Below the pieces are notes generated by a model, which had not been told where the DNA came from, did not search any database, and was given only the letters and a program-made list of their open reading frames with translations. Source: Raillietiella orientalis (Eukaryota). From it: a stretch of 64,000 nucleotides of DNA. This document shows, piece after piece, positions 12,640 through 64,000 of the stretch (its first letter is position 1; each line of letters opens with the position of its first letter). Location: positions 558,001-622,000 of the forward strand of contig JAYWIR010000026.1 in assembly GCA_036172245.1 (NCBI GenBank). Reading direction: 5' to 3'. The position numbers and the translations under genes were made by a program.

Positions 12640-15600
12640 GCGGCGTACGCACCACCGACAAACGCGGGCGACACCCGTCAACAACGCGGTAGCGAAGCGG
12701 CCGCGTCCGTCGCCAAGGCCGTCCTCGATGACGTCACTTCCGAGCGAGCGGCGGAAGGGCTCACTGCTGCGCTGCAGCGCGCTTACGAGGCCGCGGAAAA
12801 GGGTTTCGGGCACGGCGGGGTCCGAGATCTCCGATGCGGAAGCCGGAAAGGCACCTTCCGTCGCCTCCCCTCCCCCCCGGAAATCTAGACGTAAGTCCCA
12901 GAATCCGCGGAGGATCGCCTCCGCCGTCGAAGGGGAAGAGATGGGGAAGCGAGGGTGCGATGAGCGTGGGAAACTCCCGGAACCCATCGCCCGAGACATT
13001 CCCACGCTCCGACACGGAGGGGATAGAAGGGGTGCAGGCCGAGTCTCAGAGGCCTCAGGGGCCTGACATGGCCGTCGTCCCCGTGGACATCCTGTCTACC
13101 TGCCGCATGGCAGGAGCTGCAACGCCAATTTCCCAGCCTTAATGCCGGGAATCGCCCCCGCCGTCGTCTGCGAATCGCCTACTGCAACGTCAACGGCCCA
13201 AGCGACGACGGCAACAGACGAGACGTGACCGCCACCCTGGCATCCATCGACATGGTGATGCTACAGGAGATCCACGTGAGCTCCACGGATCACGGGTGGA
13301 CGGCTGCCGTGGCTCTGCAGCGCCGTCCAGTCTTGCAGCATTGCCTTCCAGCTTCGGCCGGCTGTCGAGGCCGCGGAAAAGGGTGTGCTGTACGAAGGTT
13401 TGGGCAGAGCGCCTGGGACGAGTGGCAAACGCCTTCATCAGCCCGGAACAGACTTATGCTGTTCGCGGGCGGAGCATGGAGGCGAACCTGTTCCACGCTT
13501 CCACATGGTTAGAGGTCCAACAAGGAAGGGGCTTATTGAGCAGCCGGGATTCCGGTGCGTCCGTTGGCGGGAGACGGGACGGTCGGGTGGGGAAGGGAGC
13601 CCTTGCGGTCGCTGTCGACTTGCGTAAAGCATTCGACAGCGTCGACCAGAATCTCCTGCTGGAGCTTTTGGAACGCTTATGCTTCCCGGCCTCATTATTG
13701 GCCTATCTGCGCTCCAGCTGGTACGATTCGCTCATGAATCTTACTTTCAGCGGGCAGACTGTTCACGGCGTTCCGGTGCGACGTGGGATCCGGCAGGGAG
13801 ACAGCCTGAGCCCCTTGCTGTTCAGTACCTACTTCGAGTTGGTACTGAGAGCGTACAGGGAAACTCTTGCGCACCTACCGCACGAATGCGCCGGAACGCC
13901 GGCCGTTTCAGCTTACGCGGACGACCTTCTGCTGCTGTTCCCTATGTCTACCCCGGCTTCGGCGGTCGAGAAGTTCTTCGACCTGCTGAATCGAGGAACC
14001 GGACTTACAGTGAACAGGGCGAAGTCGTCCGTGAAGCCAGTTGGTGCGGCGTGGGCAGGGCAGCAGGACTGGGACCGTTTAGGGATCCCCACGGTGAGGT
14101 ACTTCAAGTACCTTGGTGTGCCGTTGGGGGACTACTCCCCTGAGGAAGCGTGGTCCGGCTGCCTCCAAAAAGTAGAGACGGTGATCGGCCCGTTCCGAGG
14201 CGGCAGGTTTTTCCTGCCTGAACGGGCCGCGGTTTGGAACATGTTCGCGGCTCCCCTCCTCCGTTCCCTGCTTTTTGTTTGCCCCCCCCACAGAGAGGAT
14301 CAAAAAGCGGACGGAGGACCTTCTCCGTATCGCCCTTTGGGGCAATGGGAGGGCCCGAGTCCGCTTAAAGGACTTGTGCGCTCCACGTCGGGACGGTGGT
14401 CTCGGCCTCCTGACATTGGAGCGGCTGGAGCTACAGCTCCAGTTCCGTTTCATGGCTATTGTGCCGGAGTTGTGGTGCACCTGCTGGTGCGTTCCTGCAC
14501 GTCTCCTCCTTCAGCAAGCCACCGGCAAGACGGGACTTACGTCCTTTCTTGCACTTTGTCGCCGCGTCAACCGATGCGGACTCCAGCTACGGAGGATGGC
14601 TGCGCTAGCAAGGAAAAATCAAGGATTGCTCACCTGTCGCCCGTTTAACGGTAGTGCCTGGTTGCAGGAAACCGTTCGCACCTGGAGACAGTTCGGCATG
14701 CAACGCTCCCAACAGGAACAAAGGTTCCTGTTTGGGGGTTACAGAAGTGGCACGCTCCGCGAGATCCTGGAGGATCCAAAGAAGAGAGCGTGTGCAGGAA
14801 GAACCCCTCTTGCTGCTGTGCTCGACTCCCTAGTGGAACATCAGGACAGCGATGTTGCGGCGAAGTGGGAGGTTTCAGTTACAATCTCCGGAAAGGAGAA
14901 GAAGATAGGAGAGTGGAAGACGGGCCAGTTAACAGACGCTGCGACCCCGAGTACGCCTTCCAATGGACTTCTGAGCTGGGGCGCGCTGCTCGACGTTCCC
15001 ATTCAACGTTTGAAGTGGTCCCCGGTACTGATGAACACCTCCACCCTTCCCTTAAAATGGCAGGAGTCGGCTCTCCTGTTACAGCACTGGGGACTCCCCT
15101 GCAACGCCCGCCGACACCACTGGACCTGGGGAGCGGTGGACCCCAATTGCGTCAGGTGTGGGGAACGGGAGTCCCTCCCCCACCTGCATGTGGATTGTGT
15201 TGCCCTTCGGCCCCTTTGGTTCCGCTTTGCCGCGGACATCGGAATCCCCTGCGGCAACCCCAGGGACGTACTGAAAGCCCTCTTCGTTGCCGACGCCCTT
15301 CGGCCAGCGGCCTCGTTAGCAGCCCTGTGCTGCCTTCGCGGGATCGTCGCCTCCTGGAGTAAGCCTACGGGAGGACCACACGACCAGGGTGCCATCCAGC
15401 CAGCCTCCCAGTTCCTGAGGCAGGCGTCCCGATGGCCCCACCTGGATCCAGGAATACAGAAGGAGCTTGCCGGCATCCTGCAAAGGATGCAACGGCCCCA
15501 CCAGCAACTGTGATCCCTTCCCTTACCCTACCAGTTTTTTCTTTTCTTTTTGTTTTGTTTTTGTTTTTCCCCCTTCCCCCTGCTGCCGTGGTGGACCGTA

Positions 15601-15730
15601 CCGGTCTGCGAACCGGTGACGCGGCAGGCTCTGTGTTTCTTCGTGCGTTGCTGGAGCAGTGGTTCAGCCACAGCACGTCTTTGTAAATGTTTATATTACA
15701 ATAAACGCCTCGGCGAAATCCGGATGAAAA
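12640..15730 (+). mobile_element. Element A: L1/Tx1-like LINE, 5'-truncated and internally deleted
   Basis: ORF1 tail; TAATG at 13140-13144; EN start to QEIHV, then about 1.3 kb missing; RT (DLRKAFD, RQGDSLSP, YADD); CVRC..H..C; AATAAA at 15700 plus hairpin. Confidence 0.9.
13142..15513 (+). pseudogene. A ORF2 (EN largely deleted; RT and C-terminal CCHC; frameshift near 14285)
   Basis: ORF track 13296..14648 and 14275..15513. Confidence 0.88.
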
Positions 15731-15744
15731 TCGACCGCATTATG

Positions 15745-17137
15745 CGCTCTAGGGTGGACGTGTTTTCTCGGTGCTCCTTGTGCCAGGAAGTCTTCCCTAG
15801 TGCAAGCGCCGTGTGGTTCGGTGGTCGATCAGGCAGCGATGCCTGACGCGACCACCAGGGATGGCCAGAGGGCAGCAAAACGCCGCCCCCAGTGGCGATG
15901 GAGAGCCAGATGGCGGTGACAACGTCGCCCCCAGAGGCGATGGATATGGGGGCACCCGCCCACACAGAATCGGTCTCCGCTGCAGCGCGGGCGTGGAGCG
16001 CCGTTGTGTCGGCGCCATCGCCTGCAGCCGCGGCGGAATCGTCAGCCTATGTAGAGGAGGGGTACAACCCCTCATTGTTCTACAAGGTAGGCAATTTATA
16101 TTCTTTAGAGAGCGCGCGCGCCTTTTCGAAGGGCATGCGCGCTCTCGATGTGAAAGAGGAGGAGCTCAGCGCTATGAACATCCGCAGCGGGGGTCAGTAC
16201 GTTGAGGTCATCTGCAAACAAGCAGAGCTGGCCCAGCGACTGCTGAAAACCCCCGTTGTGATGGGGAGGCGTAGGCTTCTCCCCACTACGACGGACCGCA
16301 GCATGGTGGTCCACCTGTTAGGCGTAACCGCGCGAATGCGCAAAGAACAGGTTCACGCCGCTCTAGAACAATTTGGAACGGTCCACGCGCAGTGGACGAA
16401 AGTAAGTCCTTTCGAGGACTACACGGATCTGCAACACGGCATCACGGCTACGCGCGTGACCGTTTGGGAGGGCTGCACCCTTCCCCACAAACTGGTGGTC
16501 GAAGGCAAAACCGTCGACCTCTGGTATGTGGGGAAGCCGAATTACTGCGGCTTCTGCAATACGTCGGGCCACCTCAAAAAGAGGTGTCCCAACGTGCAGT
16601 GCCAAGTATGCAACACAATGGCTCACACGAGGGAGGTGTGCCCTAAAGCAGCAGTGCTGGTGGTTTCCAAGAGAAACCTTAAAAAACGTGCCCGGCTTCT
16701 GCAGAAAAGGCTGGTGGAGAAAGCTGCCGCGTAGGCTGTGCCAACCGCGCCCAAGACCCAGGCCGCACCCGATATCCCGGCGACCAACGCCGAAAAAGTT
16801 GAGAGAGCCGGCCAGGATACTGGCTGGCAATTGGCAACGGCCAAAAACTCAAAGAAGGAGAGGAGATTAGAGGAAGAGCTCGCGTACCGCCAGAAAAAAC
16901 AGCAGGCAAGCGAGCAGATAAAAGAATGCAGCGTTGTCGTGAAGCGTATTCCCGACAGCTGCGAAAAACAACTCGCCGCTACCGACGACCTCCCCTCTGT
17001 TGACTCTGCCAACAGCGAGGGGAGCGAGCCGGCGGCAGAGTCCGTCATCGACACCACCATCGATGACGTAGCCTTCGCGCGAGCCGCGGAGGAGCTGGCA
17101 GCCTCGTTGCAGCCAGAACCCTACGCGGCCAGTAGGA
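15745..17137 (+). mobile_element. Element B: 5' end and most of ORF1 (E subfamily), 3' part lost
   Basis: Starts CGCTCTAGGGTGGACGTG, as in E. ORF1 from ATG 15839 has CGFCNTSGHLKKRC and CQVCNTMAHTREVC knuckles, a frameshift, and a TAG at 16732. Confidence 0.9.
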
Positions 17138-17223
17138 GGACGTGTTTTTCCTTCACTCCCCAAAGAGTAGTAGGAAAGCGCTTTTTCTTCTGTGTGGTGT
17201 TTTGTGTACATCGTCGGTATCCA

Positions 17224-18824
17224 ATGGCCACGACGCCAGAGGACACCGCGATGGAGGTGGGAGTGGGGGAGGCTAGTTCGCCCCCACAGCCTACTGGAGC
17301 AGGGGCAGCCGCCCCGGATTCATCCCCGGCCACGCCGAGGACATGGAGCGCCATGGTGGCCGCGCCCAGCGCAGAAGCCATGGCGGAGATGGCCGCATAC
17401 AAGGCCTCCGGGTACAAGCCATCGCTTGTCTACCAGGTAGGCAACTTGTTCGACGGCCGGACAGCGCGCGCCTTCAGCAAAGCGTTGAAGGACGCGAATG
17501 TCACAGAGAAGGATCTGGACGGCCTCTCCGTCCTCAGTGGCGGGCAGCGGGTCGAGGTGGTCTGCAAAGATGTCACCTTGGCTCACCGCCTTATCCATGC
17601 GCCGCTGAACGTAGACGGCCGCAAGATCCTGCCAGTATCAATGGACCGCTCCGTGGTGGTCCACATGACTGGCATCACCAGCCGCATGACGCGGTCAGCG
17701 GTTGGTGAGGAATCGCGAAAGTACGGTGAGGTGCACGCACTGTGGCCGAAACCCTCCATTTTCGACGGCTTCGATAGCCTTTTTGGTGGGCAGGCTGCAG
17801 CGCGGGTCACCGTAAGGGAGAATTGTGGGCTTCCCCACAAACTACAGGTGGCGCAAGAAAACGTCGACCTGTGGTTTGTAGGGAAGCCCCGGTATTGCGG
17901 GCATTGTGATACCGTGGGACACCTACGTAAAAGGTGTCTCAATATACAATGCCATTTGTGCGGGGAGCGGGGCCACGTTCGGCGCGAGTGTCCCAAACGC
18001 CCCACCCCGGTTCCCCCTGCCGCGAAAAAAGCGCAGGGGAAACGCGCTTCAAAGGTCTCTAGACCTAAAGTAGAAAAGGGCCACCACAAGCTGCCAACAC
18101 CTCAACCTCCGGCGCGTAAGCCGGAGGATAAACCTTCTGAAACGGTGGAAGGCGAAGAGGGATGGAAGCTTGTAGAGGCCAGAAAGCCGAGGAAACTCCC
18201 TCCCGCGGAGAGCAAAGAGCGCAAGACGGCCGGTAAGCCGAAGAAACTCGGTCCGCGCTCGAAAACTCTGCGCGAGTGCACGGTGGCACTGGAACGAATC
18301 GTCGTTCCCGAGGTTGCCACCCGGAGCGACGATCCTCCCCTTGCTGTGTCCGCTGCGCCCGAGGCTCGCGACGGCGAACCCTCTGTTTACACAGAGGGTG
18401 AGCCACGCGACATAGCGGCGGTCGAAGCCGCGGACGCCGCGTTCGCGCAGGCGGCGGTGGAGCTCGCGGTCACGCTGGCCGAGCGTGAGAACCCCTCGCG
18501 CAAGGCCGTGCGAAGGCCGGCTCCGGGAGCGTGGGAAATTCGGAGGAGGAATTCCTACGCTCGGAAGCCGTCGATCCGGCCACCCCCATGGAGGAGGGTG
18601 AACAGGGGGCTGAAGTCCCCCCTGCAGGCGCCGACACTGAACAGCCCGCCCCCATGGAGGAGGGAGAACAGGTAGGCGCGACCCCACCTGTGGGTGACCC
18701 GCTCGACGTACAGTTTCCTATGGAGGAGGGGGACCAGGTGCCTTCAGCACCTGACCCCCCTCCTCCACCTAGCGTCCCGCCCCAGCAGGTGGCGGACGCA
18801 GCACTGCCATCTTCCTAGGAGTAA
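17224..18824 (+). pseudogene. C ORF1 (RRM-like region, 2 CCHC knuckles, acidic/Pro tail; deletion-frameshift near 18530)
   Basis: CGHCDTVGHLRKRC, CHLCGERGHVRREC; collinear with the intact I ORF1. Confidence 0.88.
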
Positions 18825-19370
18825 CACCTGGGCTCGCCAGTCGCCGTCGGATTCGCGCCGCCTGTTGGAATGTCAACGGGCTGCGCGACGACGGTAACAG
18901 GCGAGATACAGCCGACACCCTGCGGGAGTTCGACCTGGCCCTGTTGCAGGAGATCCACGTGATCACCTCGGCAGACGTCCAGGAGATCGAGACGATCGCG
19001 GGGGGTCGGCTGTATTGGCGATGCGGCATCCGCAACACCTGCGGGGTCGCGTTCTTCGTGAAGCCCGCCATCGACGCTGCCGTGAAGGGCGTGCGCTTCG
19101 ATGACGACGGTCGGGTCGGTCAGCTGACTCTCGGCTGGTCCGACTCGATCGATCTGATCGTCACGAATGTGTACGCCCCAACCGGTCAAAAGGGATACAG
19201 CGACCGTACTAGGCTGCTTGAATCCCTGAAGCGCGATTGGCTGGCGGACACGAATGTGCAAAAGGCTCACCTGATAGCGGGAGATTTCAATCGAGTGCGG
19301 ACGTGTTTTTCTTCGCTCTCGTCTCCGTGCTCTCATCCGCTTCATCTTGGCGTCGTACATTTTCACGACG

Positions 19371-21293
19371 ATGTCGACCCAACTTGAAGCTACTGAAGTT
19401 GGAGGAACAGCATCCGGATCTGCAATCGCGGAACCGACGGCCGCCTCCACTTCGTCTTTCTCGCCAATGGAGAGGAGATTTGCTGACGTTGCTGCCACAG
19501 CAGCCGTCAAAGGGAAACCACTCGACGACTCGGAGTTGCGGGCATACGTAGCCCAAGGCTATAGACCTGCTCTCCGATATAAGGTGAGTGGTTTTCTTTC
19601 TGCGCGCGACGGGAATCAGTTCAACGATGAACTGACCCGTGTTGGCGTGCGGGAGGAGGACCTTCTCGCCATTATGCCCGTAAAAGACATGGGCTATTTC
19701 AAGGTGCGTTGCAAAGACTCTGCACTTGTGCAACGCTTGCTGCTCACCCCGTTGTCGATCCGTGGCCAGAAGGTCTTCCCGGCCGCCATGGACGACTCAT
19801 TTGTGGCGGAGATTTTCGACATCGAGTCGGAAATCTCCGATACTGATATTCGGAACGCGTTGGCGAAATTCGCCACGGTCCATGCGCTGTGGAGGGTGCG
19901 TAGCAACCTCAAGGACTTCCCTTCCATACACAGCGGAGTCGCTGGAGTCCGGCTTACAATGCCGGACCGCCGTCTGCTGCCCACCAAACTACAGGTGAAA
20001 GACACGGTCGTTCACCTGTGGTTCGTGGGCAAAGTAAAAACGTGCGAGCAATGCGGGAAGGAAGGGCATTGTTTGGATAAATGCCCCTCTGGAAAATGCC
20101 GTTATTGCAAACTATCCGGGCACCAATTGAAAAATTGCCCGGATCTTTTGCGAAAAAAGGCAGCCGCGGAGCTCCATCTTAAAAAACAAAGCGCGGATAA
20201 AAAGAAAAGATCTGCGAACAACCTGGAGACCCCACGGCAGAAATTCGGTAAAAACGCGAGGCGGAATGTCGCCCCAAAGCAGCAGGAAACCTCGCACGCG
20301 AAGCCCTGCGCGCCCGCTCTCGCGGCAGGGGAGCCGCAAAAGAAAGGGTGCGGGGAATCCGGGGCAATGGTAAGTCCCCCTAGGCGCAATAGCTGTCCTT
20401 CCCAAGCACGCCCGGCTCTTTCGGAGTTCGAGCAACTGGCGGGGACGCCAATGGACAACGGCGGTAAGGACACTTCCAGTACCGTCAGATCCATTCCTTC
20501 ACCTCCTGCAGTGGCTAAGAAGCCCAAATCGGGTAGGAAGGGTTGTGCCGTGTCGACTTCGAAAGTCGGCAAAAAAAAATCCGCGTCGCGATCCAACACC
20601 GCGAAAGCGGAGAAAAATCTCACGCCATCGCAGTCGGAGAGCAAGCTCTCGACTGGCGCGGATGCCATGCCAACGAAGGGATTAAAAGCCCTTCCGAAGG
20701 CAGCGTCCATCACGAGCGTGTCGAAGCCATCCAAAGTGCTCCCGTTCAAAGACGCGGATGGCTTCAAGGATGGCAATGGAGCACAATCTCCATTTACGGC
20801 GCCACGCGAAGTGAGGAACCGTAATGAAGTAAAGAAGACTCCAGCAAAGGTCCCTCGTGCAACTGCGCGTGAGCACGCTGAAAACGCGCGCGCCGGGAAA
20901 GCAGCCGTCACGAAAAGCGATGCTCTGGTGACGGAAAACGAAAACAGGACAGCTGTCAATCCAGCAGAACCTGTCACTGCTTCGCGGAAGGCCGAAACCC
21001 GATCGAACATGCGCCGGTCGGACTCCGAAATGGATGCCGTTCCGATCACCGAGACGAGGACAACTCGTTCGAAAGCGTGTGCGCGCCGATCAAAAGTAGG
21101 CAGCCAGGCAACTCTAGCCGCGAAGCCACGCGGAGTCTCCACGAAACCCGACGGGGATAAGCCTGGCGTGGAGGCATTACATGCATGCAGCACGACAGAG
21201 GACGGTGGCGACCGTCCCCTCCAGCCAGTCGTGCTGCTCGCCGTCTGCTCGCCGGATAAAGCGAGCAAAAAGCCGCCACCTTCCCAGCAGTAA
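19371..21293 (+). CDS. D ORF1, open (about 640 aa), nucleic-acid-binding protein with CCHC knuckles
   Basis: CEQCGKEGHCLDKC, CRYCKLSGHQLKNC; long basic tail; ends at TAATG. Confidence 0.85.
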   Translation: MSTQLEATEVGGTASGSAIAEPTAASTSSFSPMERRFADVAATAAVKGKPLDDSELRAYVAQGYRPALRYKVSGFLSARDGNQFNDELTRVGVREEDLLAIMPVKDMGYFKVRCKDSALVQRLLLTPLSIRGQKVFPAAMDDSFVAEIFDIESEISDTDIRNALAKFATVHALWRVRSNLKDFPSIHSGVAGVRLTMPDRRLLPTKLQVKDTVVHLWFVGKVKTCEQCGKEGHCLDKCPSGKCRYCKLSGHQLKNCPDLLRKKAAAELHLKKQSADKKKRSANNLETPRQKFGKNARRNVAPKQQETSHAKPCAPALAAGEPQKKGCGESGAMVSPPRRNSCPSQARPALSEFEQLAGTPMDNGGKDTSSTVRSIPSPPAVAKKPKSGRKGCAVSTSKVGKKKSASRSNTAKAEKNLTPSQSESKLSTGADAMPTKGLKALPKAASITSVSKPSKVLPFKDADGFKDGNGAQSPFTAPREVRNRNEVKKTPAKVPRATAREHAENARAGKAAVTKSDALVTENENRTAVNPAEPVTASRKAETRSNMRRSDSEMDAVPITETRTTRSKACARRSKVGSQATLAAKPRGVSTKPDGDKPGVEALHACSTTEDGGDRPLQPVVLLAVCSPDKASKKPPPSQQ

Positions 21294-23009
21294 TGCGGGG
21301 AATCGCGTCTGCTCGTCGTCTGTCCGTAACGTGTTGGAACGTGAACGGACTACAGAACGACGAGAAGAGGTGGTTAGTAGCCAACGCCCTGCGCCCCTTC
21401 GACCTCGCGCTCCTGCAGGAGATTCACGTAATCTCCGACGAGCAGGCAGCCGAAATCGAGGAGCGCGCAGGCGGAACGCTACATTGGCGGTGCGGCGGCG
21501 CACACACGTGCGGCGTCGCGTTCCTCGTAAGAGGAAAAATGGCGGAAGCGGTGCGTAGTGTTCGTTTCGATGACGACGGACGGATAGGCCAGCTTGTCAT
21601 CAAGTGGTCCGAGTCCATCGATCTCGTCGTTACGAACGTCTAGCGCCGAGTGGCTCTCGCTACCTCGAAGAAAGAGTAGCTTTCTTTGGTGAGGTGCACA
21701 GCCACTGGCTGAACAACTCAAGCTTCCAACTGGCGCACCTGTTCCCTGGGGACTTCAACGTCCGCCTGCTCTCCGACGATTAGAGCCGCCCGAGCGAGCG
21801 CGCGCTGCCCATCGAGATGTGCGCGTCCGTGCACGCCGCCAACTTGATGGTCAGCGAACCTGGAATAAAAAGATCGCTCGATCACGTTTTCGTTGATGAA
21901 AACCTGCATTCGCGTGTGGGTAGGAGAGGAAGATTGTTGACTAGGCTTTCTGACCACCACAGGTTGGAGTTTGAGATCCTTCCGCCAGGCAGGGGGCCTC
22001 CGTTGCAAAGCTGGAGGATGCAGGCGGATTGGCTTAGCCAACCGGAGGCTGCGGAGCATCTACGTGGATACCTCCGAGGCTTTGCCATTTAAGAACTTGC
22101 GGACTGGGACGATCTCAAAAGATCTGTCCGCGAGTTCTGCTGCCAATTCCCCTTGCACCGGCTTCCACGCGGTTTCGGAGAGGGCGTGGCCAACAGTAGA
22201 GACTTTCTGCAGGCCCGCACGTTTTCGAGACGCGCAGATGTCGGGCGTCTCGCAGAGTACAAGGCGAGGGCCGAGCGCCAGGTCTGGTAGTCCGGAGCAG
22301 CATGCCTGTTGGACGACAAGAGCCAGGAATGTTCGGCCCCAGCCGAAGTACGCCGCATTGTGAGACGCTACTACTCCTCGCTGTACGCGGAATCCCCGAC
22401 GGAGGATATTTTTTCTGAGATACTCCTGTCTCAGGATGCTCGTGTTGTCGGCGAGAAGGAACGCGAACGTCTCAACGAGCCCTTCACAGCGGATGAATTT
22501 TCGTCCGCCATCGCTGGGCTGAAGAGACGAAAGGCGCCAGGCGAGGATGGGCTCCCTGCAGAGTTTTATCAGTGCTTTGCAGTGGAGCTCATTCCCTTGA
22601 TGCTGAAACTCGCGACGCTGACGAGTGAATCCGGGAATGTCCCGGATTCCTTCCGCTCAGCGAAGGTGCGTCTCCTGCCGAAAGGCGGAGACTTGCGCCA
22701 ACTTAACAACTGGAGTCCGATCACCTTGGTGAACTCGGACGTCAAGTTGTTTTCCAAGCTGTGGGTCGCGCGGTTAGGAAGTATCGCGGAATCTGTGGTG
22801 AGCCCGGAACAAACCTACGCGGTTCCGGGACGATCCATAGAGGCGAACAACCTTTTCGCGCGTACATGGATGCAGCTGCAGGAAGTTGTGGCGCAGCAAA
22901 GCCAGGCTGCTGCGAAAGTCACTGCCGCAGGCAAAAAGAACAGGCGCCGACGGCACCAGGGAACGCCAGGTGCCTTGGCGGTCGCGGTCGATCTCCACAA
23001 GGCGTTCGA
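21293..23009 (+). pseudogene. D ORF2, 5' part (EN and RT to DLHKAFD)
   Basis: WNVNG, QEIH, GDFN, SDH, KAPGEDG; several stops. Confidence 0.88.
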
Positions 23010-39540: not shown

Positions 39541-39544
39541 TTGG

Positions 39545-39565: not shown

Positions 39566-39636
39566 AGCTCCCGAGCGCGTCGACAGGAAGCGGTTTTTTC
39601 TTTGTGTGTGTTCGTGTGGAACATCGTTGGTGTCCG

Positions 39637-44964: not shown

Positions 44965-45181
44965 TCCCTTCCCCTCCCTCCCAACTCTTTTTGTTTTTCT
45001 TTTCATATCTTTATTTTTCTTTTTGTTTTCATCCCTATCCCCCTCCACTGCCGAGGAGCGTCACGCCGGGCTGCATCCCGGCGTCCCGGCAGGTCCGGTG
45101 TTGTGTGGCCGTTAGTGGGGCCTCGTACCACGTTTATGCAGAGTTTTTTCAATAAACGCCCCGGGCGTACCCGGATGACAA

Positions 45182-50400: not shown

Positions 50401-50934
50401 CAGTCCGAACTCCTCGGATAGCCGTCGATACGCCGTCCTTCCTCTGGCGTCTTCCGAATGAATGATCTCATCCAAAATGTTGAGATCGCCAGCAACAATG
50501 ACGACGTCCTTGGAAGCAACCTTTTCACGGAGTGCTGCATGCAGCGCCTCCGCACAACGATGTTTTAGCCTGTGCGGTCCGTACACGTTCACCAGGATGA
50601 GGTGAACAGTAGCGGACCAGGCGAGTCGCACGCCGATGATTCGTCCGGGTTGGGGACAGAACACTTCCAGAATAGTGGGGGCCAAGTTGTTCTTGATTAG
50701 GACCGCCACTCCCTGCGTGTTCCGTTCTCCCTCGCTGACGAAAATCTGCCCGTTGAATCGCCGTTTCATTTGCTGGCTAATCTCGAGACCCATCTTGTGG
50801 GTCTCCTGCAGGCACACTATGTCTTGTTGTGCGATGGTCCGCACAATCCTTCTTCTTTTTCCCTGGTCGACCATCCCGTTTACATTCCAGGAGGCGATGT
50901 TCAGCCTCCTGGCGGTCGATAGGGAAGAGGCCAT
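47416..50934 (-). pseudogene. J ORF2 (EN, RT, decayed Cys/His motif; stops at 49135 and 47590)
   Basis: SWNVNG, LQETH, VYGP, GDLN, SDH, DMEKAFD, GVR*GDSLSP, YADD, KYLG, CAACGDDDTRLH. Confidence 0.9.
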
Positions 50935-51035
50935 AAAAGGGGAAGACCTATTTCTTGGCCTTCCTGAGCTTCTTCTGTCTGAGAGAGCGTGCTCTTCCAG
51001 ACAATGAAGAAGCAGCGGGCTTCTCGCTGCCGGCG

Positions 51036-52760: not shown

Positions 52761-53606
52761 CCTGGCAGCTGGTCTTGCTGCACGGGACCACTGCAGGTCT
52801 TTTGCCGCGATCTCCTCGCCGCTTCTTTTTTTTTTTTGTTTCTTCTGGAAAACTTCCCCTCTCCGGGCACACACGAGCACAATTAACTAATAAAGTTGTC
52901 AAGCGCACAATACTTTGAGCCGCGGAGCAAGTTCACCGACTCGGCAGGAGAGGAGCAATCTCCCGACTGTCAAGAAGGTGACTCCGTTGCCGCCTTTTAA
53001 AGGCGTAGCGAAAGCAACGCCCCCAGAGAACGCAGCGAAAATCCCGGAGGTTTCCGCAACTACTGTCGCGGAAGCTTCCGAAAATCGCGAAGGCGAATGG
53101 AAGGTTGTGGAGAGGAGGAAAGAAAAATCTCCAAAGAAAGCTCCGCAACCTCCATCCCTGAGCTCTTCCAAAGGAAAAAGCAGTCGCGCGAATACAAAAA
53201 CACGCGCGGCTTGTGACTCTTCCAAGGAAAAAGCCAACGCCTTCAACGCGTGCAAGTCCGCTTCTGTGACCGCCGAGAAGACCATTCCGGTGCAATCGGA
53301 CGGATGCAAGCGCACGTCGATCGTGCGAGCATCAGACTTCGCAAAGGAGTCCGATAACGCAGCTGAACGACGCGTAACTCGCGCGGGAGCGAGCGCCCGC
53401 AGGGCTGAAGCCCTGAGGCGTGACACACTCGCCGCGGAACGGCGAGTGCTCACCCCGGAACCCACAGGTTCTGCACACGGGGAGGAGCACCCGATTACGT
53501 GCAGCACAGTTGAGGCCGGTGGCGACCGCGCCCTCCAGCCCGTCGTGCTGCTTACTGCCCGCTCGCCGGGTGAGGCGAGCACCACGGCCTCGCTTTCCCA
53601 GCCGTG

Positions 53607-56600
53607 ATGAGGGCACTCGCGTCTTCTCGTCGTGTTGCCGTAACGTCTTGGAACGTCAACGGGCTCCAACACGAGGAGAAGAGGCGACTAGTGGCTGACG
53701 CTCTGCGCGCCTTCGACTTGACGCTCCTGCAGGAGATTCACAGCATCTCCGGAGAGCAGGCTGCCGAAATCGAACGGCGCGCGGGCGGAACGCTACTTTA
53801 TAGGTGCGGCGTTGCACATACGTGCGGCGTCACTTTCCTCGTGCGAGGAACTTTGGCGGGAGCGGTGCGCAGCGTTCGTTTCGACACGGAAGGCCGAGTG
53901 GGACAGCTTGTACTGAAGTGGTCCGACTCGATCGACCTTGTCGTAACCAACGTGTACGCGCCGAGCGGTGCTGGACGATGGGCCGAAAGGATTGAGTTCT
54001 TCGGTACCCTTCAAGGCCAGTGGCTCACTCGATCTCACCCTACTGTGGCCCATCTCATTGCGGGGGACTTTAACGTCCACCTGCTTTCCGAGAATAGATC
54101 CCACAAAAGGGAAAAGTTGCTAGCGGAATAGATGTGCGTGTCCTTGCACGCGTGCAACTTGTTCGCTAGCGACCCTGTTATGGCAGCAACGCCGGACCAC
54201 GTATACCTTGATGAACACTTGCTCTGTCGAGTAAGTCGGAGAGGTCCCGTGCCGTCCGTGCTTTCAGACCACAACAGGCTCGAGTTCGATTTGCTTTCGC
54301 CAGGCAAGGGGCCTCCAAACTGTTTTTGGAGGATGCCGGCAGACTGTCTAAGCCACCCGGAGACGGCTGAGCATCTTCGCCAGTACCTCTTTGGCTTTGC
54401 CATAAGTGAGCTCGAGGACTGGGACGATCTGAAAAGATCGGTCCGCGAGTTCTGCTGCCGGTTTCCCTTGCACCAGCTTCCGCGCGGCTTCGGAGAGGGC
54501 GTAGCCAACAGCAGAGATTTCCTGCAGGCCCGCTCCTTTTCCAGGCGCGCGGACGTTGGTCGATTATCCGAGTACAAGGCCAAGGCCGAGCGCCAGGTCT
54601 GGCAGTCAGGGGCGACAGTTCTTCTCGACGACCAGGACCGGGAATGCTCGGCTCCAGCCGACGTGCGACGGATAGTCAGGCGCTATTACTCTTCTCTTTA
54701 TGCAGAGGCACCGACGGAACGCAGCCTCTCCCGGCTGCTTCTGCCGATTGATGCACCTGTTGTAGACGAGGAGGAACGCGCGCGTCTTGATGAGCCCTTC
54801 ACGGCAGAGGAAATTTCCTCGGCCATCTCGGGGCTCAAGAGACGAAAAGCGCCAGGCAAAGATGGGCTTCTTGCGGAATTCTTTCAGTGTTTTGCGGCGG
54901 ATCTCATCCCCTTGGTGCTCCAACTCTCGTCGCTGATGCGAGAATCGGGCGATTTCACGCCTCGTTTTGCTCAGCGAAGGTGCGTCTACTGCCGAAAGGC
55001 GGAGATTTGCGCCAACTGAGCAACTGGCGTTCGATCACATTAGTGAATTCGGACGTCAAGTTGTTCTCGAAACTTTCGGTGGCGCGGATGGGTAGGATCG
55101 CGGAATCCTTGGTAAGACTGGAGCAGACGTACGCTTTTCCTGGACGGTCCATAAACGCGAATCTCTGGTTTATCCGCCCATGGCTGCAATTGCAGCATCG
55201 TGTGGCGGTGGATCCTCGTGCGGAAGCAACGCGTTCGATCTCTCACCGACGGAGGCGCAGGACGCAAAGGGAGACACCGGGAGCCTTAGCGGCTGCAGCC
55301 GATCTGCACAAAGCTTTCGATTGCGTGAACCAAAAGCTTCTTCTTGAGCTTTTGGAACGTCTGGGTCTTCCGGCATCCCTGTTGGCGTACTTGCGCTCCT
55401 GCTGGCGTTACGCGATTACATCCATTGTTTTCAGTGGCTGTCGCGTGTACGGCGTGCCGGTACGACAAGGAATTAGGCAGGGTGACAGCTTAAGCCCGCT
55501 GCTCTTCAGCATCTATTTTGAATTGGTGCTGGAGGCTTACAGGCTGACGCTAGCCAACCTGCCGAGCTCCTGTCCAGGTACGCCGGCCGTTGCAGCCTAT
55601 GCCGACGACCTGCTTCTCCTGTTGCCCATGTCCATTCCGACAGCGTCGCTTGAAGATTTCTTTGAGTTGATCCGTCGCGGTGCGGGCGTGAGCGTTAACA
55701 GGAGTAAGTGTATGGTTGTTCCGATGGGTGAGACGTGGGAGGGGCAGTCCGACTGGATCGATCTGGGGATCCCCACGGGCAGGTACCTAAGGTACCTTGG
55801 CGTGCCGTTCGGCGACTTCTGCATCTCAGAAGCGTGGTCGGACTGCCTTCGGAAGGCAGAGCGTGCACTTAGCCCGTTTTCAGGAGGCGAGTTCGTCTTG
55901 CCGGAACGGGCCTGCATCTGGAACACCTTCGTTGCCCCCCTCCTCCGCCCCCTGTTTTTTGTTTGTCCACCCCCCCAGGAAGTCAAAGTCTGGGCGCAGC
56001 GCCTTCTACGCAAAGCGTTGTGGGGCGCTGCAAGATCCCGTGTTAGACTTCAAGACTTGGTGGCGCCGCGTCAGGATGCAGGTTTGGGCATCCTCGACTT
56101 AAACAGCATCGAACTGCAGGTGCAGTTTCGCATGCTGCGGCTCTGTGCCAAGCTGTGGTGTACGCCGTGGTGCTTACCCGCACGCCTTATACTGAGGCGC
56201 TGCACGGGAAGCGAGGGACTGCTTTCGTTGCTACCCCACTTTCGGCACACCAGAATAGAGTTTGGCTTCCCGCTGAGGCAGCTGTCCTCACTGCTGGAAG
56301 CCCAAAGCTGGATCTCCTGCCGCCCCATGAACATTAATGCATAAGGACAGGAATCTTTTTCATCGTGGGCAGCTTCCGAAGGAACGCGCCCGGAAGATCT
56401 TCGACGCCTGCGACTTCTCCTCAGTCATCAAATGGACGAAGTCATGCAGGACAAGAAGTTGTCTGATCGTCTGGCCGTCACACCAATCGCCGCAGCGCTG
56501 TGTGCCCTCAGGGAAAGCAACGACGGTTGCCTACCGGCGGAATGGGAGCTCTCCTGCAGAATAGCGGTAGTCAGTAAGCTCCTCCGTAGCTGGACCACAA

Positions 56601-57176
56601 AGGAGCTGGTGCAAGCCGCCACACCTCGGAATCGGGCGAAGGGACTGCTTCGGTGGAGCGAACATTTAAGTGTGCCCCCCGGAGAGAGAGTTGGTTCCCT
56701 CTGTTTGTTTGACAGCTCCGTGTTCCCTTAAATGGAAACAAGATGTGCTCCTCTTTTACATTGTGCATTTCACTGTAATAGGCAGCGAAGATCGTTTCCG
56801 GGGGAGCTGCTTTTGGTTAAACTGTTTAAGGTGCGGAGAGATCGAGTCTTTTCCGCACCTTTTGTTGGACTGCGGTGACCTCCGGGAACTGTGGCGAAGG
56901 CTCACTTCGGCCATCATGCCACAAGGAGGCACTGCCAGTGATGTGCTGCGGCGCTTCTTCAGCAGAAATGGACTTTCGGTTGGCGCGATTGTCGCAACCA
57001 TGTGTTGCGTTCGCGCCATCGTGAAGGCCCGCTACGCCCTGGAGTTTTCATCGCAGCGAAGGGAGGCTCACCTGCTTGCAGCTCAATTCATGGAGAAGGC
57101 TTCAAGGTGGTCTCATCTTCGTGACAAGGTGAATGAGGACATCACCGGCATACATCGCCGGTTTACACACCTTTGA
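53607..57176 (+). pseudogene. G ORF2 (stops and frameshifts)
   Basis: EN and RT motifs, YADD, CLRCGEIESFPHLLLDC. Confidence 0.9.
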
Positions 57177-57501
57177 GAACGACGTAATCCGGTGACCCCT
57201 GCTACCTCTCGCCCACCCATACCCCGTCCCCGTTCGCTCGGTAAAATTTCCGGTGCCCATGCTTTTATCCCCGTGTCTTCCAGAGCGATCCCAAACACCC
57301 TTATCCCGTCCTCCTTATTCATTGTTTTTATTTTATTTTGGTTTCTTTGTGTTTCCCGCCCCTTCACACCGTTCACAAAACTGTTACTCTTGCCTGCGTG
57401 CCAGCAATATTCTCTTCATTCATGTTCAGTCGTCGGTTGGGAGTTTGGTTCCCAACTGGTTTATTTTGTATAATTGCTTTTTTTTTGGTTATGTTATATG
57501 G

Positions 57502-57531
57502 AATAAACGCCCCGGCGTGACCGGGTGAGAA
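57502..57531 (+). terminator. Conserved 3'-terminal AATAAA plus CCGG-N5/6-CCGG hairpin; representative copy
   Basis: Copies at 4826, 15700, 30747, 37243, 45151, 57502, 62392 (+) and 23040, 31149 (-). Confidence 0.75.
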
Positions 57532-57694
57532 ATCTCCCGGGCTTGATCTGCGGAGATCACGTGGATCTCCTGCAGCAGCACCAGGTCGAAGGATGCCAGG
57601 GTGGCGGCCACGTCACGCCTCTTGCCGTAGTCGCTTAGCCCGTTCACGTTCCAACAGGCGATCAGAAGACGACGGCGAGAGGCGATTACCGGCA

Positions 57695-59338
57695 TTATGG
57701 CTGGGAAAGTGGCGTCGCGGCACCTGCCGCGGGGCAGGTGTAGGGAAGGTCCATCGGTACGAGGACGGAGGTCTCTTCAGGCTCCTGGGGTACCTGTTCG
57801 GCCTCCATCCTCACCATCCCATACGTGTCCGAGCGTGGAATTCTCTCGGGCGACGGGTCCCGGGAGTTTCCCACGCTCATGGCACCCTCGCTACCGGAAG
57901 CCATCTCTTCCCCTTCGTCGGGGGAGACGATCTTCCGGGGCATTGTGGACTTTCGTCCTGCCTTTTTGCGGGGTGCCGCGGAGATGGATGCTGTGTTTCC
58001 GGCCTTCACCTCGGGGTCGGAAGTGGCCGACTCCTGAGGGGAAGCCGGACGCCTGACGGCCTTCTTGCCAGCCTTGGGGGCAACCGGCTGCAACGAGGCA
58101 GCCAGCTCCTCCGCGGCGCGCTCGAAGGCGACGTCATCGAGCGTGGGCTCGATGATGGACGCCGCCGCCTCGCTCCCCTCCTTGTTGACTTTGTCAACGG
58201 AGGGTTGAGCAGGGGCAGCAGCGAGTTCTTTAGCGCCGCATTCGTCGATGGCGGGAATCCGCTCTACAACGACGCAGCAGCTTTTAATTTTTTCGCGGCG
58301 CAGAGCGGTTTCGCTCCGTTTCCCCACGTTCTTTCCCTTCTTATGGGAGTTTTTCTTGGGGTCGACCTTCTGCCACCCTGGCTCTTGACCCTCGCCCTCG
58401 ACCTCTTCGGCGTTTTTCGACGGGGTCTCCGAACTGGCCTTCGCCTTGGTGGCGGAGGTGACCTCCTTAGCAGCAGCACGAGCTGCCAGCTTCTTTCTCC
58501 TTTCTGCCGCGCGCTTTCTCGCGTTTTTCGCGGACACGACGCGGACTGTGTTTTGGGGGCACACCAGACGGGTGTGCCCCGATTGTTTGCATTGCTGGCA
58601 CTGCACGCTCGGACACCTCATTTTAAGGTGACCAAAGCTGCTGCAGCAGCCGCAAAACTTGGGTTTCCCCACGTACCACACGTCAACGGATTCACCGTTG
58701 ACGGTGAGTTTGTGGGGAAACTCACATCCCTCGCGAACCGTCACTCGCGCTGCACCCAGGCCGCCAAGCACCCCGTCGTAATCGACAAAAGGAGTAGGCT
58801 TTCCCCACAGCGCGTGGACAGTTGCAAATTTTTCTAATTCGTTCCGGACGGCCTCCTTCGTCATCCGGAACGTGATACCGGTCAGGTGAATGATCACCGA
58901 CCGGTCTTCAGTAATGGAGAGAAGCCTCCGGCTGCCCATAATTACGGGGGTTCGCAGAAGTCTCTGCGCAAGAGTTGCCTCCTTGCAGATAACTTCCACA
59001 AATTGACCCCCGCTTCTGACGGACATAGCCAGAAGCTCCTCTTTCTGTACGCCGAGAACGCGCATCGCCTGTGAGAAGGCGCGCGCGTTCTCGGGAGAAT
59101 ATAAACCGCCTACCTTATATAGAAGGGGTGGGTTATACCCCTCCTCCAGGTAAGCGCGCATTTCCGCCATAGCCGCTGGCGTAGGTGCCGCAGCCACGGC
59201 ATTCCAAGCCCTGGGTAGGGCCGGGGGCGCATCCGTGCTGGCGGGAGCCTCCACTGATGCGGGAGCCCCCACCTCCATCTCCTCCGGGGGCAATGAGGTC
59301 ATCGCCCCCGGATCCTCACCGGTGGTGGTATCAGGCAT
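57695..59338 (-). CDS. F ORF1, open (547 aa)
   Basis: CGCCSSFGHLKMRC, CQQCKQSGHTRLVC; ends at TAATG 57697-57693. Confidence 0.87.
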   Translation of the reverse strand: MPDTTTGEDPGAMTSLPPEEMEVGAPASVEAPASTDAPPALPRAWNAVAAAPTPAAMAEMRAYLEEGYNPPLLYKVGGLYSPENARAFSQAMRVLGVQKEELLAMSVRSGGQFVEVICKEATLAQRLLRTPVIMGSRRLLSITEDRSVIIHLTGITFRMTKEAVRNELEKFATVHALWGKPTPFVDYDGVLGGLGAARVTVREGCEFPHKLTVNGESVDVWYVGKPKFCGCCSSFGHLKMRCPSVQCQQCKQSGHTRLVCPQNTVRVVSAKNARKRAAERRKKLAARAAAKEVTSATKAKASSETPSKNAEEVEGEGQEPGWQKVDPKKNSHKKGKNVGKRSETALRREKIKSCCVVVERIPAIDECGAKELAAAPAQPSVDKVNKEGSEAAASIIEPTLDDVAFERAAEELAASLQPVAPKAGKKAVRRPASPQESATSDPEVKAGNTASISAAPRKKAGRKSTMPRKIVSPDEGEEMASGSEGAMSVGNSRDPSPERIPRSDTYGMVRMEAEQVPQEPEETSVLVPMDLPYTCPAAGAATPLSQP

Positions 59339-59420
59339 TGCTGCCTAATCCTCCACCCACACCACACACAAGCACCAACGGAAACGAAACTCAGGAGCAA
59401 CGAAAAGACACGTCCGCTCG

Positions 59421-62215
59421 ACGCTCCGCAATCTCGATGATTGGGACCTTTTTAAGGCCTCGGTCCGCGAGTTTTGCGAGGAGTTCCCCTTGCACCTCCT
59501 GCCCCGGGGATTTGGGGAGGGGATCCGTAACGAACGAGAGTACTTGTATGCCCGTCGTTACGCGAGGACCCCCAATGTCCGTCGCCTGGCAGAGTACCGA
59601 GCCGGGGCCGAACGTCAAGCCTGGCAATCCGGATCGGCCAGCTTGCTGGACGACCAGGGCCGGGAGCACTCGGATCCGGCTAGAATACGGCACCTCGTGC
59701 GGCGTTATTATTCCTCCCTTTACGCCAGGGCGCCCCCGGACCAAGATGCCTCTCGGCGCTTGCTTCCGAACGGTGCCCCGGCAATAGGGGAGGAGGAGAA
59801 GGAAAGCCTCGACGAGCCTTTTACCACCGGCGAAATTCTCGCCGGTATCAAAAGGCTCAAGAGGCGGAAAGCACCAGGGGAGGACGGCCTGCCTGCGGAG
59901 TTTTTTCAATGCTTTGCGGCAGAGTTGGCACCCCTGGTGCTTGAGTTGACAAGGCTGATCCGAGATGAAGGCGATGTACCGGCCTCGGTTCGTTCAGCCA
60001 GAGTGAGGCTCCTTCCGAAAGGAGGAGACCTCAGGAAACTCAGCAACTGGCGTCCGATCACAATTGTGAACACGGACGACAAGTTGATCGCCGGACTGTG
60101 GGCTTCGCGTCTGGGGCAGGTGGCTCATTCCATAATTAGCCCGGAGCAGACTTACGCTGTTCCCGGGCGAAGTATGGAGGCCAACCTCTTCTTCGCGAGC
60201 ACATGGTTTCATGTGCAGAGTAGTGAAGAGAAGGAAGAGGGAAGGATTGGCAGCCTCGCTTTGGGGGCGTCAGCCGGGCAGGGACAGAACTTTCAGGTGG
60301 GGAAGGGAGCCCTAGCGATCGCAGTCGATCTGCATAAAGCGTTTGACTGCGTGGACCAGGATCTCCTGCTGGAGCTCCTAGGACGCATGGGCTTCCCTCC
60401 CTCCCTACTGACCTACCTGCGCCCTTGCTGGCGCGGCGCGCTAATCAATATCTCTTTCAGAGGTCAAATGGCGTACGGCGTGCCGGTACGGCGGGGCATA
60501 CGGCAGGGAGACAGCCTCAGTCCCCTGCTCTTTAGCACCTACTTTGAATTGGTGCTGAGAGCGTACAGGGTAACTTTGGCCCCCTTGCCGAGCTCGTGCC
60601 CCGACACGCCCACCGTAGCAGCGTACGCCGACGATCTTTTGCTGCTGTTGCCGATGTCCACCCCGGCGAACGCGGTCGGGGATTTCTTCGATGTGCTTAG
60701 CCGCGGGACCGGACTTACGGTGAACAGGGCGAAGTCGACGGTGGTTCCAGTCGGTGCGGCGTGGGCTGGGCAGCAGGACTGGGTCCGCTTGGGGATCCCC
60801 ACGGAGAGGTGCTTGAAGTACCTTCGTGTGCCGTTGGGGGACTACTCCCCTGCGGAAGCGTGGTCCAGCTGCCTCCAAAAAGTGGAAACAGCGATCGGCC
60901 CATTCCTGGAAGACAAGTTTCTCCTACCGGAACGGGCCGCGGTATGGAACGCGTTCGCGGCTCCTATCCTCCGCCCCCTGCTTTTTGTTTGCCCCGTCCC
61001 CAGAGAGTTGAAAAAACGGACGTAGGACCTCCTGAGAATTGTCCTTTGGGGAAGAGGGAGGCCCCGAGTCCCGTTGAAGGACTTGTGTGCTCCACGTCGG
61101 GATGGCGGTCTCTGCCTCTTGACGATGGAGGGAGTAGAGATTCAGCTGCGGTGGCGAACCCTCGCCATCGCAGCGAAGTTATGGAGCACCCCTTGGTGCG
61201 TTCCGTCCCGACTCCTTGCCAGCCGTGTATCCGGGACGGAGGTTCTCGCGTCCTATCTTCTCTGCCGTGGCAAGAAGATCAAGAGATGCGGACTTCTCCT
61301 GGGACGCATGGCAACTCTGGCTAAGGAAAACGGCTGGATGGTATGCAGCCGCGCCAACTCCTCCGCATGGCTGGAGACAGCTGGCACGTGGGCGAAGATA
61401 AACCAGAAGAACGGAGAGATGTGGAACTGCCTGCGACGCGGCGCCTATTCCCGCTGCACTCTGCGGAAGATACTCCAGTGTCCCGCGAGAAGCACGTGGG
61501 CAGAGACAACCCCCCTAGCTACGGCAATGCCCTTCCTGAGGAAAGCGCTTTCCAGCAGCCGCAAGCCTAGGTGGCAAGTCTCCTGCCGCATCGCAGGCAA
61601 GAAGTTGATCAGCGGCTGGTCCACGGGTGAACTGGCGGACGCCAGTACCCCTAGTGTCCAGCCGAGAGGACTTCAGAGATGGGGCGAGCTACTCGGCATC
61701 CAGCCGGATGACCTGAAGTGGCCCCCGGTATTAATTGGTTCTAGGATCCTCCCCCTGAAGTGGCAGATTCGGCGCTTCTGTTGTTGCATTGGGGTCTACC
61801 CTGCAACGCACGTTGCAACCACTGGACCAGGGGTCGAGGAGATCCTACCTGCATCAGGTGTGGGGAACGGGAAACCCTCCCCCACCTCCGTGTTGATTGT
61901 GCTGCCCTCCGACCCCTGTGGGAACGTCTTCGTGCCTCCCTACGGATCCAGGAGGGCAGCCAGCCCAGAGACGTTTTTCGGCTTCTGTTCGTGCATGATG
62001 CCCTGCGTCCAGCCGCTAACCTGGCTCCACTTTGCTGCGTACGCGGGATTGTGACGTGCTGGAGCAACGTCAGAAGACCGAGCCACAACAGGGATGCCGT
62101 CGTACTTGCAGTCCGCTACCTGCGGATTGTGACCAGATGGCCCCACCTGGGAATTATACGGACGGACCTCGAGGGCATCCTGCGAAGGATGGACCCTCCT
62201 CCCAGTGGTCAGTGA
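59421..62215 (+). pseudogene. C ORF2, 3' part (RT and CCHC; TAG at 61023, frameshift near 61765)
   Basis: KAPGEDG, DLHKAFD, RQGDSLSP, YADD, CIRCGERETLPHLRVDC. Confidence 0.9.
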
Positions 62216-62421
62216 TCCCTCCCCAACCCTCCCAAATCTTTTTGTTTTTATGTTTTATTTTTCTTTTTGTTTTTTCCCCCACCCCCTTCCGCTGCCGAGG
62301 AGAGTCGCGCCGGTCTGCGTACCGGCGACCCGGCAAGTCCAGTTGAGTTGGCCGTAGTGGGGCCTCGTACCACGAATCAAAGAGAATGTTTAATAAACGC
62401 CCCGGCGTGACCGGATGGCAA

Positions 62422-63731
62422 CTAGCAACTTGGCGTCCGCATTCACTATTGTTATTGGACTCCAGTTGTTCATGCTCCTCAGATCTCCTCCCTTAGGGAG
62501 GAGCCGCACCTTTGCCGAACGAAACGAGGCGGGAACGTCACCTGTTTCGCGTATCAGCAAGGTGAGTTGCTGTACCAGGGGGGTGAGCTCAGCCGCGAAA
62601 GTTTGATAAAACTCCGCGGGCAGGCCGACCTCCCCTGGAGCCTTTCGCCTCTTGAGCTTTCCGATGGCCGAGAGTATCTCGTCCATCGTGAAAGGCTCGT
62701 CGAGGGTCTTTCTCTGCTCCTCCCGGATCGCTGGAGCGCTTTCCGGAAGCAGGAGTCGTGAGACGTTCCTCTCCGGAGGTGCCCTGGTAAACAGGGAGGA
62801 GTAGTAACTCCGCAGCAGTCCGCGGATTTGGGCAGGTGCCGAGTGCTCCTGGCCCTGATCCTCCAGTAAGCTGCCCGATCCGGACTGCCAGGCTTGCCTC
62901 TCGGCTCCTGCTTTGTATTCCGCCAGCCTGCGGATGTCGGGGGTCCTGGCGTAACGGCGAGCCTGCAGGTAGGCTCGTTCGTTACGGACCCTGGTCCCAA
63001 AACACGTAGGTAGAAGGTGAAAAGGGAACTGGTCGCAGAACTCGTAAACGGACCTTTTGAAGCAGTCCCAATCCTGGAGTGTCTGCATCCTGAAGCTTTG
63101 TCTGAACGTGTGGAGATGTTCCGTAGCGTCCGGGAGCTTAAGCCAGTCCCCTGGGAGACGCCACGCTGACGAGGAGGGGCCCCTGCGGCGCGGATGGATC
63201 TCAAGGACTAGCGGGCGATGGTCAGACAGCTCGCACAGAAACTTGCCGCGCCTGCCTACGCAAGGGCACAGGTACTCGTCAAGAAACACGTGCTCAATGC
63301 TGTCTTCCATCAACGGTGCACTGGCCAACAAATTACAGGTGTGCACCGCCATGCACACTTCGTTGGCCAGGTCACGCTCGGGATTCTGCCCATCTGGTTT
63401 CAGGCGAACGTTGAAATCGCCTGCAACCAAATGGGCATTCCGCACGCCTGCTTCGGTCAGCCAGTCTCGGCGGAGGGCAAAGAAAAACTCTTTCCTTGCC
63501 CTCCTAGTCATCAGGTCCGCGCCGCTCGGTGCGTACACGTTCGTGACGATCAGATCGATCGAGTCGGACCACCTGAGAGTCAGCTGGCCGACACGACCGT
63601 GATCGTCGAACCACATGCCCCGAACCGCGGCGTCGACGGCTGGCAGAAGCAGGGAGGCGACACCGCAACTTTTCGCTCTCCCACACGTTTACCATAGCCG
63701 CCCTCCGGAGATCCGTTCGATCTCCCGCGCT
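62422..63731 (-). mobile_element. Element L: internal piece (EN to RT NADAKL), E-like; host of C (3' junction) and K
   Basis: ORF 62390..63616 closely resembles E ORF2; bounded by C's 3' end and K's 5' end. Confidence 0.88.
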
Positions 63732-64000
63732 CGTACAGTGCAGACGTGTTTCCGCGTCTTTCCGCGCCAACGATCGGGCAACTTTGTGCCTGCGTTTTTG
63801 CTCGCACTTGTGTGTTCCTGTGCAATCTGCCAAGTAGCATAGTGCAACATGGCCAGTACACAGGATAGTGTGGAGCAGCAAGCCACTGGATGCACTTCAG
63901 CTGCACTTGAAGTGGCCGCATCCTCCGTAATGGTTTCCTCGCCCCCGGTGAGGAGTTACGCCGTCGTTACCTCCCAAAGACCAGGACCCTGCGATGCGGA
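63732..64000 (+). mobile_element. Element K: 5' end of a G-subfamily LINE running off the window
   Basis: Nearly identical to 45919-46187; ORF1 ATG at 63849. Confidence 0.92.

Follow-up and report, generated by a model that had tools for sequence, protein, structure and literature searches.

The window analyzed here, a stretch of 64,000 nucleotides of contig JAYWIR010000026.1 from Raillietiella orientalis, contains an island in which copies of long interspersed nuclear elements (LINEs) are inserted into one another to a depth of five. The island is a gap-free, LINE-only mosaic of 51,324 bp (12677-64000) made up of 14 LINE pieces or copies, bearing out a preliminary description of the same DNA which had reported about 51 kb devoid of non-LINE sequence. 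Seven of the insertions are bounded by target site duplications (TSDs), and two sites within the elements were used repeatedly, one in the endonuclease (EN)-coding region (copies G and K) and one at the reverse transcriptase (RT) motif-A codons (copy E and a 14-nt spacer between copies A and V). These features suggest that insertion between sibling LINE subfamilies is directed by sequence and that the orientation of an insert is fixed by the strand recognized, a proposal to which we give about an even chance of being correct.

Composition of the nested island

The elements are APE-type non-long-terminal-repeat retrotransposons, with an endonuclease followed by an RT in the second open reading frame (ORF2), with TSDs and with no terminal repeats. 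Searches of 16 long ORFs against Pfam gave matches to RVT_1 in nine, to Exo_endo_phos in four and to zf-CCHC in one, and to nothing in five; the ORFs of copies H, J and E matched both Exo_endo_phos and RVT_1 above the Pfam cut-offs. An L1-like architecture would have a CCHC knuckle in ORF1 and a zinc-binding domain C-terminal to the RT; the zf-CCHC match, found in one ORF1, scored 21.9 bits (cut-off, 20.8), and the zf-RVT match scored 20.5 bits, which is under its cut-off of 27.5. Searches of protein databases and of the Atlas returned no named close relative, the nearest database proteins being unnamed and at most 32% identical except for one (74%).

The 5' ends have a common GGACGTGTTT motif, and the 3' motif AATAAACGCCCCGG was found eight times at two mismatches or fewer (six of them exact) versus 0.40 expected. 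About 25 nt past AATAAA, the elements end in a short conserved stem-loop (CCCGG...CCGGG) followed by NNAA and have no poly(A) tail. Since the four predicted pairs of the stem-loop show 0 compensatory changes, it is best described as a conserved sequence whose structure is unproven. The last 2 to 4 nt ahead of the terminal AA differ among the copies at all 3' ends (e.g., 30747-30776), which may reflect variable cleavage/polyadenylation sites and copying that takes in no more of the tail than its first A residues.

All eight complete copies (C, D, E, F, G, H, I and J) are full length, at 5.5-5.96 kb, with none 5' truncated, and members of a subfamily start at the identical base (E and V; G and K). 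A whole ORF2 is kept in none of the copies, the longest being that of H (1041 residues). At least four subfamilies were distinguished by DNA identity, namely, the E type (E, A, V, L and F; 82-94% to E), the C type (C and I; 76-87%), the D type (D, G and K) and H, which forms a subfamily of its own. Copy J represents a second, distant LINE family with ~30% amino acid identity to the H ORF2. In two of the E-type copies, V and E, a 42-bp segment near the 5' end is tandemly duplicated (15864-15944 and 28372-28454), and the J ORF1 contains repeats of 27, 36 and 54 bp (52432-52635).

The island was mapped by self-BLAST, by tblastn with ORF1 and ORF2 and by mapping onto copies H, E and D. From left to right, with the strand of each piece as a sign, the order is U+, A+, a 14-nt spacer, V+, C+, D+, E-, D+, C+, F-, H+, F-, I+, F-, G+, J-, G+, F-, C+, L- and K+. 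The hosts that are split continue colinearly past their inserts, with overlaps that correspond to the TSDs, which range from 9 to 18 bp. Copy C (+) is present as three pieces colinear with I, at 17126-19292 (5' untranslated region [UTR], ORF1 and start of the EN), 30777-31120 and 59421-62421, again with overlaps equal to TSDs. It is interrupted at the 'GDFN' codons of its EN by D (19293-23009 and 28574-30776, +), the only sense insertion, with a TSD matching at 9/9 positions (ATTTCAATC, at 19284-92 and 30777-85). The full-length E (23010-28573, -; 5564 bp) in turn interrupts the RT motif-A codons of D (HKAFD) in the antisense orientation, with a 14/14 TSD (CACAAGGCGTTCGA, at 22996-23009 and 28574-87).

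The second insert in C is F (-), antisense and in four pieces that are colinear in E coordinates, at 31121-31780 (3' end), 37273-39540, 45182-45920 and 57532-59420; its 18-bp TSD (31103-20 and 59421-38) matches at 16/18 positions. Three copies are inserted antisense in F: the full-length H (31781-37272, +) in the 3' UTR, with an ORF2 open over 1041 residues, Pfam matches to EN and RT and a 12/12 TSD (AGCAGTGCCGAC); the full-length C-type copy I (39541-45181, +), with an 11/11 TSD (CCCCAAATCCC); and the D-type copy G (45921-47281 and 52936-57531, +) in the EN region, with a 10/14 TSD (45907-20 and 57532-45). The ORF1 of G is interrupted by J (47282-52935, -), which is full length and antisense and has a 12/13 TSD (47269-81 and 52936-48). 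The nest is thus five deep (L/V > C > F > G > J). The preliminary description had given it as L > C > F > G > J, and this order stands with its TSDs and colinear hosts, except that C is hosted by L on its 3' side only, its 5' end abutting V (+) in sense without a TSD.

Additional information on these junctions came from public sequencing runs, among which only one, X1, has related sequence (a 0.05 share of words), with contigs 95-99% alike; no RNA run with related sequence was present among the runs listed. In one X1 contig, 19283 is followed directly by 30777, and 9 letters at the joint can be assigned to either side. This contig corresponds to a C-type copy without D, which supports the view that D was inserted and gave a 9-bp TSD. 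A second contig, over 19263-23009, extends 30 letters into C from the C/D junction, one below the 31-letter criterion. Three further family-to-family joints in X1 were left out of all tallies, namely, 30771 + 16 nt + 26341, 25930 + TCTCC + 19291, and 22978 to 25246 on opposite strands. Of these, the last looks sense-sense and the others look antisense. In the second of them, a D-like 5' start lies at the position homologous to the site of I in F, which may be a third reused site. A scan of metagenomes for the 3' motif gave 11 loci which were rejected as chance matches, as none of the 11 resembled the window or its proteins in BLAST comparisons.

The 12.6-kb flank to the left of the island is moderately AT rich and contains only one degenerate family fragment, versus pure family DNA over 51 kb. 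The GC content is 0.40-0.56 in positions 1-12000 and 0.54-0.63 from 12001 to the end of the window, with the GC-rich sequence beginning near 12625-12640. The fragment is part of a degenerate LINE remnant (3462-4854) that comprises an RT piece (3462-3749) and, at 4311-4854 (+), a 3' region whose end is a copy of the 3' motif with two mismatches. As this remnant is located outside the island, not all copies sit in family DNA. Pfam searches of 22 flank ORFs gave a single RVT_1 match, below threshold, and an Rfam search gave 0 families.

Two reused insertion sites

The first reused site is occupied by G in F and by K in L. Copy K (63734-64000, +) is the 5' end of a G-like copy that extends past the window and is antisense in L (62422-63733, -), an E-type piece (E coordinates 1907-3227) which hosts both the 5' end of K and the 3' end of C. 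Alignment placed G and K at the identical nucleotide of their hosts, and the two agree in orientation and in 5' start. The two inserts are identical at 258/267 positions (96.6%) without gaps, whereas the hosts F and L are 74-79% identical across the adjoining 100-738 bp, where L is 90% like E. One duplication cannot yield both figures. Either G-type copies entered one site on two occasions, or the insert was transferred by conversion between hosts that match poorly. The chance of such an exact coincidence is ~9e-5 per pair and ~0.004 over 45 pairs. The site sequence is present with 0 mismatches in F and L and with 1 in H, and the homologous place in D or G gave no match at three mismatches or fewer. 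The fragment at the left edge of the island, U (12677-13394, +), a 5'-truncated copy reaching from the ORF1 C terminus to about residue 100 of ORF2 and 72.7% identical to F, crosses the site uninterrupted. In this fragment (13255-13330), ~20 bp are missing exactly where E, F and L have the target sequence.

The second site lies in RT motif A. The perfect 14-bp TSD of E corresponds to the HKAFD codons within the 'AVDLHKAFD' of D, and the D reading frame is restored when one copy of the TSD is kept. At the left of the island, the 3' half of an E-type copy, A (13395-15730, +; E coordinates 3230-5564; 93.6% to E), is followed head to tail by the 5' part of a second one, V (15745-17125, +; E coordinates 1-1386; 89.5% to E), which has the same 5' start as E (CGCTCTAGGG). 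The 3' end of A and the 5' end of V, both with the termini of E, are exactly 14 nt apart, and the spacer between them (15731-15744) resembles the antisense strand of the motif-A codons, matching the E TSD at 11/14 positions (p ~4e-5 for one comparison) and the motif-A DNA of I at 12/14. A target that was regenerated by one insertion and then entered by a second would leave such a spacer. The E-type copies A and F themselves have CGTAAAGCATTCGA, an RKAFD variant, at motif A, which is only 10/14 to the target.

The preliminary description had also noted that the TSDs share no consensus. No common TSD motif was found in the present analysis either, yet two sites were reused. Its broader suggestion, that the elements target their own family, is strengthened by the 51 kb of pure family DNA beside a flank with a single degenerate fragment and by the two exactly reused sites, leaving that interpretation partly supported overall. 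Moreover, each of the inserts E, D, F, H, I, G, J, K and C (9/9) is hosted by a copy from another subfamily. The exact reuse of sites, combined with the absence of these targets from the inserting subfamily's own copies, points to sequence recognition that fixes orientation.

We therefore propose, from the arrangement of the sequence, that the island would have grown as full-length LINE copies were inserted, one after another and by target priming, into members of other subfamilies of their family, with at least two subfamilies picking their target by sequence. The G-type copies would enter one site in the EN-coding region of E-type copies. For the E-type copies, the point of entry in C/D-type hosts would be the antisense strand of the motif-A codons (the 'HKAFD' variant), with the stagger fixed at 14 bp. 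Recognition may be by the endonuclease or the RNA of the element itself, and the remaining subfamilies (C/I, H and J) probably obey looser rules. Since a site recognized on one strand fixes the orientation of the insert relative to its host, an excess of antisense insertions would follow from the targeting without any separate effect.

Several observations weigh against this proposal. Each site reuse is a single pair. For the EN site, K is visible over 267 bp and from one side only, the TSD of G matches at only 10/14 positions, and the 7-nt stretches preceding G and K resemble each other more closely than do the two TSD copies of G, so that the shared 5' sequence could have come from gene conversion or from a carried 5' flank. 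Potential targets are also empty, namely, the 1-mismatch site in the EN region of H (33607-33620, -) and the motif A of I (43089-43102, -), which fits the degenerate pattern TCGAACGCCTTRTG with 0 mismatches and is 13/14 to the E TSD. In addition, F, an E-type copy, is not located at motif A, C and I occupy different host sites despite belonging to one subfamily, and the nick sites have no common consensus. A by-eye comparison of the insertion sites revealed neither a nick-site consensus nor homology between target and insert ends.

A more far-reaching version, which we put forward only tentatively, is that the sibling subfamilies are sequence-specific mutual parasites. Each would read a short site in a conserved coding motif (EN region or RT motif A) that is absent from its own copies and would insert antisense and at full length, disabling the competitor's copy and building a LINE-only island in the process.

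Orientation of the inserts and competing explanations

The preliminary description had emphasized an antisense bias, with six of the seven TSD-bounded insertions (E, F, H, I, G and J) antisense to their host and D in sense, and all seven TSDs were found as it claimed. It had also listed three one-sided antisense junctions, and those of the C 3' end and the K 5' end in L were upheld, but that at 4854 was not, as there is no convincing family DNA to its right. The bias is real in the window but statistically thin, suggestive rather than established, at p = 0.125 for 6/7, p = 0.039 for 8/9 with the one-sided junctions added and p = 0.021 for 9/10 (binomial, two-sided), and same-site events are not independent draws. 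The absolute orientation is mixed, with nine on the + strand and four on the - strand. This argues against a regional cue such as replication direction, which we reject, and indicates that the orientation is set by the immediate host.

Among the alternatives to sequence-directed insertion, the one that survives best is a regional niche, in which the island would mark a permissive or preferred chromatin domain, for instance a centromere-like one as for Zepp/ZeppL, where any LINE may land, and the orientation excess and the site coincidences would be sampling noise or conversion. We consider this somewhat unlikely as the whole explanation. Zepp nested clusters, described as occurring once per chromosome and with GC above that of the genome (PMC3446292, PMC8226300), provide a precedent, the island being similarly GC rich (~0.54-0.63 versus 0.40-0.56 in the flank); J, of an unrelated second LINE family, landed in the island too, and 6/7 antisense is not significant. 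However, a niche alone would not predict the reuse of one nucleotide by inserts 96.6% identical in hosts 74-79% identical, nor the 14-nt spacer. No satellite or other centromere mark was found in the window either, where all five tandem-repeat entries fall within elements. A Zepp-like chromatin niche may well act together with targeting.

An orientation bias coupled to transcription, whether through R-loops or RNA homology, as raised in the preliminary description, or through transcription-coupled repair, would require the hosts to be transcribed, with insertion succeeding mainly when the sense strand of the host is primed. This fits the primed strand, which is the host sense strand in 8/9 events, and the finding that orientation tracks the immediate host and not the region, and there is a precedent in human L1, whose bias against sense insertions in genes is reported to arise via transcription-coupled repair (PMC5717806). 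It nonetheless leaves the exact-nucleotide reuse and the fixed 14-bp stagger unexplained, and with ORF2 broken in all copies here and their transcription a supposition, we regard it as unlikely.

Survivorship was also considered. If orientation were random, sense-in-sense nests, being direct repeats, would be lost or scrambled by recombination, and antisense nests would only invert. The left edge of the island does have two irregular sense-sense junctions without TSDs. At the first, U joins A, two + copies of different subfamilies meeting at non-homologous positions (~E 2045 and 3230); about 5 nt of microhomology (CGAAG) is present at this junction (13383-13400). At the second, V joins C, again at non-homologous positions (E coordinates 1386 and 1). 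Furthermore, A (E 3230-5564, +) and L (E 1907-3227, -) are complementary halves of one E-type element, broken between E 3227 and 3230 with neither overlap nor gap, A starting exactly at the end point of L and the 3' end of C lying exactly at the L break. These halves are now 47 kb apart in opposite orientation, suggesting rearrangement inside the island, and the chance of their abutment being a coincidence is ~0.003. For the A/L and U/A configuration, we considered template switching, twin priming and a simple two-break inversion, none of which fits all three junctions. As a general account of the orientations, however, survivorship is very improbable, since host and insert subfamilies are typically 65-80% identical and hence poor substrates for homologous recombination, and the irregular junctions are at non-homologous positions.

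Finally, the mis-joining of dispersed copies into an apparent nest during assembly can practically be set aside: the assembly of repeats is difficult and the arrangement of A and L is unusual, but the seven insertions have matching TSDs with hosts colinear after the inserts, the junctions are non-homologous and not where assemblers switch, and X1 contigs both reach across the C/D junction (with the 30 letters on the C side) and contain the empty D site.

Comparison with known systems

If the reuse of sites holds genome-wide, it would mean that retrotransposon subfamilies aim at each other's genes rather than at multicopy genes or microsatellites of the host. This would bear on the origin of LINE-only islands, including centromere-like ones, on the coexistence of competing subfamilies and on how APE-type elements gain new sequence specificity. 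As both candidate sites are defined and short, the idea is directly testable.

The closest precedents for the island as a whole are Zepp and ZeppL, the clusters of L1-type LINEs of green algae (Coccomyxa and Chlamydomonas) that are described as inserting into existing copies of the family (PMC8226300, PMC3446292). Like the island, these are LINE-only clusters formed by insertion into family copies, of elements that are GC richer than the genome. The Zepp arrays are described as tandem and composed mostly of 5'-truncated 3' ends (PMC8226300). Compared with these published descriptions, the island differs in that its complete copies are 8/8 full length, its TSD-bounded insertions are 6/7 antisense, poly(A) tails are lacking, and the insertion sites are internal coding positions.

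With human L1, the island shares the tendency of inserts to be antisense to the unit entered, the antisense excess in transcribed genes being reported as generated at insertion (PMC5717806). As reported there, that bias is statistical and not site bound, whereas exact sites recur in the island.

The apparent repeated use of a defined sequence is a likeness to the Tx1 clade and other target-specific APE-type LINEs, one that concerns insertion behavior. Some Tx1 lineages are reported to target other transposons, namely, Tx1D, Mariner-N4 and particular LTR elements (PMC4494074). A site-specific element can also re-enter a target regenerated by its own TSD, and the A/V tandem suggests the same here. 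Unlike for Tx1, the targets in the island are coding motifs of sibling LINE subfamilies, and only two subfamilies show reuse, with apparently independent copies at the same nucleotide seen for G/K and for E plus the A/V spacer, one pair each, and not for C versus I nor for F. A non-exhaustive search of the full-text literature found no account of LINE subfamilies that target the coding motifs of one another in the antisense orientation. Self-nesting LINE clusters, as in Zepp, and LINEs that target transposons, as in Tx1, are already known; what is new here is the two exact site reuses.

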